Origin: Paraspadella gotoi
Taxonomy: Eukaryota > Animalia > Chaetognatha
Reading direction: 5' to 3'
Length of the DNA stretch: 64,000 nucleotides
NCBI GenBank assembly: GCA_051294375.1
Contig: JBJCIZ010000239.1
Coordinates: 6,879,826 to 6,943,825, forward strand
Position 1 is the first letter of the stretch. Each line of letters opens with the position of its first letter. The notes beneath the pieces were generated by a model, which searched no databases, had not been told where the DNA came from, and saw only the letters and a list, made by a program, of their open reading frames with translations. Shown here piece by piece: positions 3,346 to 6,300 of the stretch. A program made the translations under genes and the position numbers.

Positions 3346-6300
3346 GTAAACATAATCCGAAAGGAAAATAAATAACTTAATCACAAAATAGATTTTTATT
3401 TCACATTTCGTTACCATGTACTACGTTAATGAATAAATATTGATAAATACAGAGAGAGTCTTGATAAAAAGCTTTCAGAGATCTGCTATGTCATTATCTT
3501 GTAAGAGTGATGGAGGCCTTAAACCACCAAAGCCTGTCCAAAGTCAGGGGCAAGATAGCTTATTTATTAAATGAATGGATAATTTTTATATTAGTTGTGC
3601 AAATTTCATAATAATAATAATAATAATAATAATAATAATAATAATAATAATAATAATAATAATAATAATAATAATAATAATAATAATAATAATAATAATA
3701 ATAATCTTCATCCAACCCCTTTTTCCCCTCTCCCTCCCCACACACGATCGCCGTCCGTCTCCATCTCACACACAGAACTCGGAATCCAGTCACCGAGGCG
3801 TCCATCTGGCCTCTTGGAATTTCCGCTACGTGGAGCACACCCTCATCTTCACCGTATTCATCTTTTTCACTGGACTCGTCAAGATCGTCTATCACCACGC
3901 CGACTTTCTATCTTCCAAATTCCCAGGTTTCTCTGTCTGTCTCTCTGTCTATATATCTGTCTGTCCGTCTCGTCTCGATCTATCTTTTCTAAATTACAAG
4001 GTTCGCTGTAGTATAAAACATAGTATACAGAACAAGCGTTTAATGATGTCTCACCTTTAACTAAATAAAACAACGATTTTCCTCCTTTAATACTAAATAA
4101 ACTGAATATAAAGCGAAATTACATGAACTCTGCTACGTTGAATTTCTGATGATGTTATAGCTCGACTTTGCACCATGAAAAATATACTGATCATAGATCT
4201 GAGAGTAACTTACCTTTCATATCAGATATCAACTTAATTACTGCCATTTTTACCCCCGCGAGGTGAGCATTTGAAACATGGTAACGGTGATACAGACCGA
4301 CCGACCGACAATTGACTCATGAAGCATCCCCACCCCCGAACAGAGTCGTGCCTCTTGATCTGCCTCGGCTCGGCCGTCGGCGCTCTCGCTTACTTCAAGT
4401 TCTTCCAAGAAGAGGAAATCCGATCTTTCAACGCAAGAACCTTTTTTCTCTATCTCCTCCCGCCCATCATGCTCGAGGTAAGTCGGTGATAAAAGGGTTG
4501 GTGATGGGAGTTTGTGATAAAAGGGTTGGTGATGGGAGTTTGTGATATAAGTGTTGGTGATGGGAGTTTGTGATAAAAGGGTTGGTGATGGGAGTTTGTG
4601 ATAAAAGGGTTGGTCATGGCAGTTTGTGATAAAAGGGTTGGTGATGGAAGTTTGTGATAAAAGGGTTGGTGATGGGAGTTTGTAAATATCTTAATAATTT
4701 ATTTTTGTTTTGACTTCGTAATGAGTGAAAAAAAAATGAGGAGGAAATTCGAGCTTTTCAATCAGAAATAAAAGGAAATTCGTTACCTGGAATTGATGGC
4801 TTTGTTAAACAATCATAATCTCAGTAATTAGTGCTAATATGGATATCATAAGAGAGCCCGTTAAAAATTAAATCATGAATATTGATTATAATTTCTCAAA
4901 AGTAAATACTTTACCATTACTTATTGTTAAAACTAAGGTATTCATAATTCTATACCTTATCACTTTGATTGGACCCCAAGAAGATACTGTTTTATAAGAA
5001 AATAATGTTTTATAAATCGTCCGGAAAGTGATAAAAAATATTAAGTTATTGAGCGGGGAGATCATTTTTAATTACACAAAAAATGTATATACAATGTCTT
5101 TAAATAGCTTTGTTCAAAATTTACACGTTTTCGTTGGGTGAATTTTTTCTAGCGGCGGGTTTCAAATGGTCACCATGTAGGCATGTACCATAAGGTAAAA
5201 TAATTCTTTTACAAAATGAGATTTATTTATTCACGCTTTCATTCTATTTTTTTTTCTTTGCGAACAAAAGACCATCTGTTCCTTTCGCGTTTTGCTCCAT
5301 TCTTCATTCCCTTTCAAAGGCCGGAGGGAATAAGGAATAGACGTGCAAAGGCTTTAATTTTTAAAACGATAATAAAGGGGAAAAAAGGAATTAAGAGAGA
5401 GAGAGGGAGGGAGGGAGAGAGAGAGAGAGAGAGAGAGAGAGAGAGAGAGAGAGAGAGAGAGAGAGAGAGAGAGAGAGAGAGAGAGAGAGAGAGAGAGAGA
5501 GAGAGAGAGAGAGAGAGAGAGAGAGAGAGCGAAAGAGAGAGTGAGCGCAGATGTTTTTTTCAGTGAGACGGCGGAATAAAACGTTATCGTTTTCTGAGAC
5601 AAAGAATTAAGGTTAATCAAAGTCTTTGAAATTAGGTTTTTTTTCAGTTAATCAAAATATTCTGGTTAATCAAAGTCTTTAAATTTAAATTTAAGTAAAT
5701 CTAAATTTTTCCAAGTTTGAATTACACGAGGTGTGGGAGTCTGTTTGTATGTTTATATTAATAAATATTTGTTTATGGCAATTCAATTGCGCGCTATCTC
5801 TCTCTCTCTCTCTCTCTCTCTCTCTCTCTCTCTCGTCTCTCTCTCTCCTCTCTCTCTCTTCTCAGTGCGCATATTCCCTCCACGATAGAAACTTTCTCGA
5901 CAACATGGGCACAGTTTTACTCTACGCTGTCGTCGGAACAGGTGAGGCTCAGGGAGAAGGAGGAGGGGGGGGGGCTTAATCAGAAAAAAGGGAGGAAAGG
6001 AGAGAAAAAAAATATTCTGTGTCTCTGTGTTACCATTTATCACCGGATATTAGATAAAAATATTACTTTGTGGCGGTATATTCACACCACCTCACGTCCA
6101 CCATCCGTCAGCCAAATCCATTGGCTCAGAGGGGGAACACACCATCCCAGGCGTAGTGTTCCATCCACAGTCCTAACGACTTCCCTCTGCGTTGGCAAAG
6201 CGAGACCGTCCTAGGGTAACCGCGCCAGTGACTGGAGGCGTCACTGAGGGTCGGAAGCCCCCAAAGCCAACAGTGAGATGCCCCATCCCAATGGGCATCA

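Follow-up and report, generated by a model that had tools for sequence, protein, structure and literature searches.

A predicted palindrome-paired type-P5 twister-like ribozyme in a high-copy, candidate Penelope-like repeat of Paraspadella gotoi

The ribozyme candidate described here lies at positions 3495-3557 of a 64,000-nt stretch of AT-rich, microsatellite-rich animal DNA (Paraspadella gotoi, contig JBJCIZ010000239.1; the whole stretch is referred to as the window), within a repeat that we designate family A. Its closest described counterpart is the type-P5 twister (Rfam RF02684), with which it shares the order of the structural elements, the U^AA cleavage site, the catalytic G, an L4 loop engaged in two pseudoknots and the G-C pair closing P4. 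It differs in that a palindromic linker, of 4-6 nt in the subtype to which family A belongs, takes the place of the long P1 hairpin, in its bulged three-pair P2 and swapped T1 and T2 letters, and in that it resides in a high-copy eukaryotic retroelement and scores below the Rfam gathering score. Our preferred reading, which we consider somewhat probable, is that a Penelope-like retroelement, or a non-autonomous short derivative of one, has the repeat as its 3' pseudo-LTR (long terminal repeat) and tail, with a palindrome-paired type-P5 twister predicted to cut at 3520/3521.

The manner in which P1 would be formed has a parallel in the minimal type-I hammerheads of Penelope-like elements (PMC4209133; PMC6765202), where the cut-adjacent helix (helix III) is likewise a short palindrome presumed to pair between copies, monomers being inactive and dimers weakly active in vitro. 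These hammerheads are also located in a 3' repeat upstream of the start of reverse transcription and occur in thousands of truncated single copies; the family A ribozyme is, however, of an unrelated class, and its dimerisation is predicted. The Naiad and Chlamys elements, which predominate in the genomes of many invertebrates and algae and number in the tens of thousands in some invertebrates (PMC8557442), resemble family A in their 5' truncation, partial tandems, tail, and AT-rich or microsatellite neighbours. Naiad and most Chlamys elements have been reported without canonical hammerheads, an absence read as hinting that this ribozyme may be dispensable or parasitic, and PMC8557442 never mentions "twister", whereas a reverse transcriptase (RT) with Chlamys-type motifs accompanies one relative of the family A motif (L004, see below).

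Retrotransposon-borne twisters with a weak or missing P1 are known from the T-variant twisters of Schistosoma Perere-3 (PMC8501958), and those of Perere-3 are active in vitro. They are of type P1 and lie at the 5' end of the element, the start of which is set by the cut, unlike the type-P5 motif of family A, which lies near the 3' end and whose copies span the cut. Retrozymes (PMC7761336; bioRxiv 10.64898/2026.07.22.740005) are also short non-coding ribozyme units, and the family A unit of ~285-305 nt would fit an animal non-LTR retrozyme. Both the non-LTR and the LTR retrozymes use hammerheads, and the latter are described from plants, whereas family A and a second family of the window, family B, carry twisters. 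Full-text literature searches, judged by their listings except for the papers cited here, showed no twister in Penelope-like elements and no palindromic, dimer-forming twister, although published alignments and tables may list eukaryotic type-P5 examples.

The twister-like fold of family A and its conservation

From its 5' to its 3' end, the motif consists of the 5' arm of P5, UAA, G-A-GU, GAUGG, AGGCCU, U^AA, ACC, AC, C-AAA-G, CCUG, UCCAAAGU, CAGG, GG, and the 3' arm of P5 (Table 1). This is the permuted order with the ends in P5, the pairs of which have folding probabilities of 0.66-1.0. The catalytic G, the U^A cut site and the A that follows it are present (G3509, U3520, A3521 and A3522), and both pseudoknots are fully paired, T1 through three pairs and an A.A and T2 through two pairs. 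P4, CCUG/CAGG with a closing G-C pair, carries the 8-nt loop L4, UCCAAAGU.

An earlier, sequence-only reading had identified a compact twister at this position, with a 7-bp P5, a 4-bp P4, a single-pair P3, an AC/GU pseudoknot, and a predicted cut between U3520 and A3521. This identification holds, as the catalytic bases, T1, T2, P4 and P5 are all present; the three helices and the AC/GU pairing are confirmed from the sequence, and the alignment with the Rfam model places the predicted cut at the same bond. A second letter swap, U3511-A3540 in T1, had gone unnoticed. The statement that all pairings are intact was wrong, as becomes clear from a comparison with the published twister anatomy (PMC5408937; PMC8501958, Table 1). 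P2 falls short of four pairs, its 5' strand (ACC) having 3 nt and the helix consisting of two pairs, the bulged A3506 and one further pair, while the P1 linker AGGCCU has an energy of +5.6 kcal/mol as its best single-strand hairpin and of -9.1 kcal/mol as a duplex. The unusual parts of the family A twister are a palindromic P1 predicted to be incompetent as a hairpin and a bulged three-pair P2.

The Rfam Twister-P5 model aligns with 3495-3557 from end to end, with 25.8 bits (E 0.32) against a gathering score of 37.6. As it scores below this value and lacks both the P1 hairpin and the 4-bp P2, we file the motif as a twister-like variant and not as a member of RF02684.

Conservation was assessed with contigs from public sequencing runs aligned to the first copy of the repeat, c1, at a variant threshold of 3% and with the c1-private differences at 3475 and 3482 excluded. 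None of the 54 constrained positions (paired or conserved core) carries a variant at or above the threshold, as against 3 of the 9 free ones and 10 of the 45 in the flanks (Fisher p 2e-4 and 2e-3), the three classes having been drawn from the twister model after the variant table was seen. For the whole core against the flanks the p value is 0.014. The variable core positions are the bulged A3506, the loop residue A3530 and G3550, where the variant, A, would convert U3502.G into U-A. The comparison of core and flanks that had been put forward as a check on the ribozyme thus comes out in its favour.

Relatives and the self-complementary linker

Relatives with the same architecture were sought by a descriptor scan of the window, a metagenome scan in which the linker was left free at 4-10 nt, and a covariance model built from seven sequences. 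The first gave family B and the last family C (E 0.002), also in the window, while two of the four metagenome matches, L002 and L004, have P4, P5, T1 and T2. A pattern scan of prokaryote genomes gave four matches, none with T1, T2 and P4 together, and one of viral contigs gave none. Three further pattern scans gave four matches, in none of which P2 and P4 occur together in the family A register, two identical chance matches, and 39 matches that are nearly all due to chance. The last set includes L089, a phage type-P5 twister at 282-373(+) with an 11-bp P1 hairpin and with T1 UGG/CCA and T2 AC/GU as in family A. Because the AC/GU swap is found in this long-P1 twister as well as in family C and L004, it is not the novelty of family A.

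The 3-nt bulged P2 and an AAGAG junction are common to families A, B and C and to L002 and L004, being imposed by the search pattern in the latter two. In the seven-row alignment, which is a small set with hand-chosen sequences and structure, 13 of the 21 pairs have double changes, including pairs of T1, T2, P2 and P4. T1 appears as UA, CG and GC, T2 as AU and GC (three of each at one pair), and all five P4 columns are double-changed. We judge from the aligned sequences that the compensation in T1, T2, P2 and P4 between unrelated families exceeds chance.

This pattern bears on the alternative that the motif is a twister-derived structure that no longer cuts and is kept for a non-catalytic purpose, such as RT binding or a folding signal. 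Such a role would be in line with the score below the Rfam cut-off, with a P2 one pair short, with the genomic copies that span the cut site, and with the finding that hammerhead cleavage is unnecessary for insertion of the anole Penelope element in vitro (PMC11167929). However, five families retain the general base G, the cut-site A and the two pseudoknots, with compensated changes, and the bulged P2, being common to all five, is better viewed as design than as decay. We therefore regard the loss of catalysis as quite improbable.

The linkers of all five families are self-complementary: AGGCCU in A, GGCGCU in the solo repeat B1 of family B, GCCGGU in C, CAAUUG in L002 and CGCG in L004. In the four families found after A, the inner linker pairs are Watson-Crick in every case, for which the chance is 1.5e-5 under uniform letters (0.004 for the innermost pair alone). 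Among the linkers of chance matches (30 distinct ones overall), none of the nine with 4 or 6 nt is self-complementary. A phage control with the canonical P5 pattern gave 56 loci, 41 of which pass P2 and P4 and yield 29 distinct cores. Linkers of 15-26 nt are found in 28 of these, 27 being hairpins of -8 kcal/mol or better, and the remaining core consists of two type-P1 twisters in tandem. The phage locus L051 (~260-360, read on the - strand) has type-P1 twister cores that follow each other directly, two in number, with a G.U in the T2 of the first.

As AGGCCU is too short for a hairpin, the linkers of the four other families are self-complementary and those of the phages are long, it is likely that P1 is formed between two copies, by analogy with the hammerheads of Penelope elements. 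In two-copy folding calculations, which leave the pseudoknots outside the model, the intermolecular P1 is obtained with probabilities of 0.87-1.0 for c1 of family A, B1, L002 and L004, and the probability of P4 in family A is raised from 0.07 to 0.99.

The main rival to this pairing is an active monomer, in which the linker of 4-6 nt would be a loop capping T1, and the palindrome would have another role (dimerisation for packaging, avoidance of misfolding) or be partly due to chance. The family A catalytic bases and pseudoknots are intact, and twisters can be active without P1 (PMC5408937; PMC11662667), P1-less ones cleaving almost as fast as the wild type (PMC5408937). A monomer whose linker stays unpaired might therefore cut alone; this speaks against a need for the dimer. 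Imperfections in P1 and P2 are moreover tolerated across ~1,950 tested type-P1 twisters, the natural ones with an imperfect P1 or P2 and intact pseudoknots mostly being able to cleave (PMC11662667). The twisters tested there that had been predicted earlier were of type P1, and that paper contains neither "type P5" nor "palindrom". The published P1-less constructs, however, had free ends and not a short covalent linker, and no more than one closing pair would be required for a capping loop, whereas the inner linker pairs are complementary in five of five families with differing letters. In addition, the genomic copies cross the cut site with no visible step in contig depth at 3521, which is more readily explained by poor cutting of single copies. 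All things considered, cleavage by the monomer appears unlikely to us.

Family B merits a separate description, as its 647-bp element is TRIM-like (resembling a terminal-repeat retrotransposon in miniature), with TA...CA repeats of ~230 nt and a long-P3 twister in each repeat, the two being 417 nt apart. The internal part starts with TGG, similar to a primer-binding site, and ends in a purine tract similar to a polypurine tract; one full element was found, and its primer tRNA was not matched. No target-site duplication (TSD) was seen at the solo repeat B1. The layout of LTRs, the two priming-site-like sequences and a 4-bp TSD would fit the plant LTR retrozyme, from which family B differs in its animal host and its twister. 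As for L002 (1-1097), it has an exact terminal repeat of 123 nt, corresponding to a circular or tandem unit of 974 nt, with one twister and no frame of more than 130 codons.

The host element

When the window is compared with itself by BLAST, five copies of family A (c1-c5) and one fragment are obtained, in agreement with the several copies noted earlier. The copy near 13 kb (c2), described as identical over the core, is indeed identical in 61 of 61 nt at 13091-13151(-), although most of its P5 5' arm is missing, and the conclusion of recent mobility holds. Copy c4 is not independent of c3, since both sit in a 4.3-kb inverted duplication; the ribozyme of c3 is decayed, with the linker AGGGCU and the first P2 pair broken. 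At the 5' junction of c2 (13152-13211), element sequence is repeated in a stutter of 7- and 11-nt units, as if the RT had slipped. In four public runs, 11,374, 13,045, 3,768 and 729 contigs align to c1. In one run, the contig depth adds up to ~3 million over the core and to 70-100 at single loci, which suggests ~10^4 family A copies, though it is not a copy number.

The 3' end of family A is fixed, because loose contig ends pile up at 3610/3611 without a consensus beyond, and it is located 88-91 nt past the predicted cut. The 5' ends vary, those of c1, c2, c3 and the loose-end tables being different. The contig depth is low over 40483-40534, and its fall towards the 5' end of c3 was not used as a truncation profile, since it is confounded by the divergence of c3. 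Head-to-tail joints are found within single contigs, at 40751>40486 on c3 and at 3605>3542 and 3611>3505 on c1.

In the sequence-only reading, the longer copy at 40580-40790 had been likened to an LTR running from TG to CA. The TG at 40580 is no boundary, however, because the loose-end consensus continues upstream of 40585, and the copy begins near 40483. The observation that no TSD is evident was correct, the flanks of c1, c2 and c3 having in common only A/T-rich 5-7-mers that are indistinguishable from chance. An LTR retrotransposon was rejected for family A for want of fixed TG...CA ends and a distinct TSD.

A fixed 3' end, variable 5' truncation, a partial tandem and an optional tail of 30-40 nt together constitute a Penelope-type end structure, and the ends of family A would accordingly fit a Penelope-like pseudo-LTR with tail and not an LTR. 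The Penelope element of the anole has its hammerhead cut 26 nt, and its start of reverse transcription 111-118 nt, into the open reading frame (ORF; PMC11167929). By subtraction, the distance from cut to RT start is 85-92 nt, which is matched by the 88-91 nt of family A. Uncut RNA is the main template of the anole element, and cleavage is not needed for its insertion in vitro (PMC11167929).

It is also conceivable that the ribozyme is correctly recognized and that family A is instead an LTR, or else the 3' end of a LINE or SINE (long or short interspersed element) whose tail is (TAA)n. Copy c1 does end in (TAA)n, no partner ORF was seen, and family B has the same twister within an LTR-type element. 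Nevertheless, the variable 5' ends and the sequence running past 40580 argue against an LTR, the conserved tail past the 3' end and the head-to-tail joints are Penelope features, and the known LINE twisters are found at the 5' end, which they define (PMC8501958). We consider a host of this kind very unlikely.

The link to an RT is provided by L004, where an RT frame (Pfam RVT_1, E 0.004) stops ~325 nt before the twister. This frame is 44% identical to P0001, the sole match of the protein search, which has CxC and DKN motifs and a 92-residue A-B spacing, ends with the RT without a C-terminal endonuclease, and has eukaryotic RT-like clusters as its Atlas neighbours. The two RTs thus appear to carry the marks of Chlamys-type Penelope elements as described in PMC8557442, the clade being judged by motifs. 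No relatives of the L004 RT were found in viral contigs, and no hammerhead in the window at E values up to 1.

Under the preferred reading, a Penelope-like element with a palindrome-paired twister, tandem transcripts would bring two ribozymes together, and their AGGCCU strands would form a 6-bp P1 common to both. The cut at 3520/3521 would proceed by standard twister chemistry and release RNA of unit length, and reverse transcription would begin ~90 nt downstream, with uncut or re-joined RNA as its template. If lone copies cut poorly or the cut RNA is re-joined, reverse transcription can cross the cut site, as the genomic copies show it to have done. The twister would in this way stand where other Penelope-like elements have their minimal hammerheads and follow the same dimer logic.

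Several observations weigh against this proposal. As for the fold, deviation from a 4-bp P2 may disturb the active site according to a review (PMC5408937), and the predicted fold of the monomer differs from the twister fold (z -0.45, with probabilities of 0 for P2 and 0.07 for P4 in pseudoknot-free folding). A prokaryotic sequence, L006 (23.9 bits), resembles the motif and has a 5-nt non-palindromic linker and broken T1 and T2, and families A, B and C share one genome, so that their independence may be incomplete. Ranked by binding energy among permutations of their letters, the natural linkers fall no more than in the upper part, at 33/180, 5/60, 44/180 and 1/6. The palindrome is broken in c3 and c4, the shared P1 helix is not formed by c3 or by the decayed family C in two-copy folding, and the family B linker, 6 nt in B1, lacks one G in B2, is unclear in B3 and has been deleted from B4. 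Diverged contigs on c3 have changes of 2-6% at positions including at least core positions 3505, 3513, 3515-3517 and 3520, from which it follows that decayed copies are common. The connection between motif and RT comes from one locus (L004) of another organism; a tblastn search of the 64-kb window with P0001 gave a best E of 1.5 and no family A RT, and the reading frames through family A contain no convincing GIY-YIG or RT piece.

A wider proposal, which we put forward tentatively and believe somewhat less than the preferred reading itself, is that these motifs make up a distinct twister subtype missed by Rfam (type P5, bulged three-pair P2, palindromic P1). It would be an obligate dimer and the missing ribozyme of the hammerhead-less Naiad and Chlamys elements and their short derivatives. 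Hammerheads and twisters, two unrelated classes, would have converged on one palindrome-gated switch that permits cutting in tandem only, and in family B an LTR retrozyme of an animal would have captured the motif. If true, this would argue that self-cleavage of tandem transcripts is a conserved need to which either a hammerhead or a twister can answer. It would also mean that a natural dimeric twister exists, which was not found in the literature searched, and that Rfam and descriptor searches overlook a subtype with thousands of copies per genome.

Coordinates and other features of the window

Table 1. Positions of the predicted ribozyme, its parts, the family A copies and the related families in the window
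Feature	Position	Strand	Remarks
Type-P5 twister-like ribozyme, predicted	3495-3557	+	from sequence, Rfam alignment and cross-family covariation
P5	3495-3501/3551-3557	+	7 Watson-Crick pairs, plus U3502.G3550
P2	3505, 3507, 3508/3523-3525	+	bulged A3506
P3	C3528-G3532	+	single pair
P4 and L4	3533-36/3545-48; L4 3537-44	+	4-bp helix
L1 3' strand, GAUGG	3509-3513	+	predicted general base G3509, A3510, then UGG as T1 strand
T1	UGG/CCA 3538-3540	+	pseudoknot
T2	AC 3526-27/GU 3543-44	+	pseudoknot; A3526-U3544, C3527-G3543
P1 linker AGGCCU	3514-3519	+	palindromic; predicted partner is a second copy; no variant at or above 3%
U^AA, predicted cut 3520/3521	3520-3522	+	position from Rfam model alignment
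Copy c1	3452-3611	+	5'-truncated 3' end of repeat; stops at the fixed 3' end of the family (ATTTCA/TAA)
(TAA)n microsatellite	3609-3705	+	abuts 3' end of c1; target site or expansion of the end
Copy c2	13040-13151	-	97% identical to c1; truncated in P5 5' arm; self-BLAST
Copy c3	40483-40801	+	3'-end repeat and tail, body, decayed ribozyme, ~10 nt of tail; ~285-nt head-to-tail unit
Copy c4	37620-37938	-	duplicate of c3, within the 4.3-kb inverted duplication
Copy c5	1145-1271	-	decayed; beside tRNA-Lys-like SINE head on opposite strand
Family A fragment	11320-11358		self-BLAST
Family B element	62359-63005	-	LTR 63005-62776, 184-nt internal part, LTR 62591-62359, 4-bp TSD CTCC
Family B solo repeat B1	41915-42146	-	twister linker GGCGCU; duplicate at 36283-36509(+)
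Family C decayed twister	60731-60813	+	linker GCCGGU (60753-58), AC/GU T2, 5-bp P3

The window contains large duplications over 34831-43582, 42180-56043 and 20923-32780, one of them inverted (4.3 kb, 95%) and the others direct (7 kb, 89%; 2.1 kb, 99%). Some of them lie beside N gaps and many one-base deletions are present; they are possibly artefacts of the assembly. An intronless ORF of 1,568 aa at 16168-20937(+) has an N-terminal DZIP3-like HEPN domain (Atlas 0.93), with look-alikes that are mostly molluscan; the rest of this ORF presumably resembles an SAMD9-type NTPase. The tRNA-Lys-like SINE heads are located at 1284-1341 and 14505-14555 (Rfam tRNA, 42.4 bits; ARAGORN negative), and 41-nt units form a tandem array at 29368-29603.

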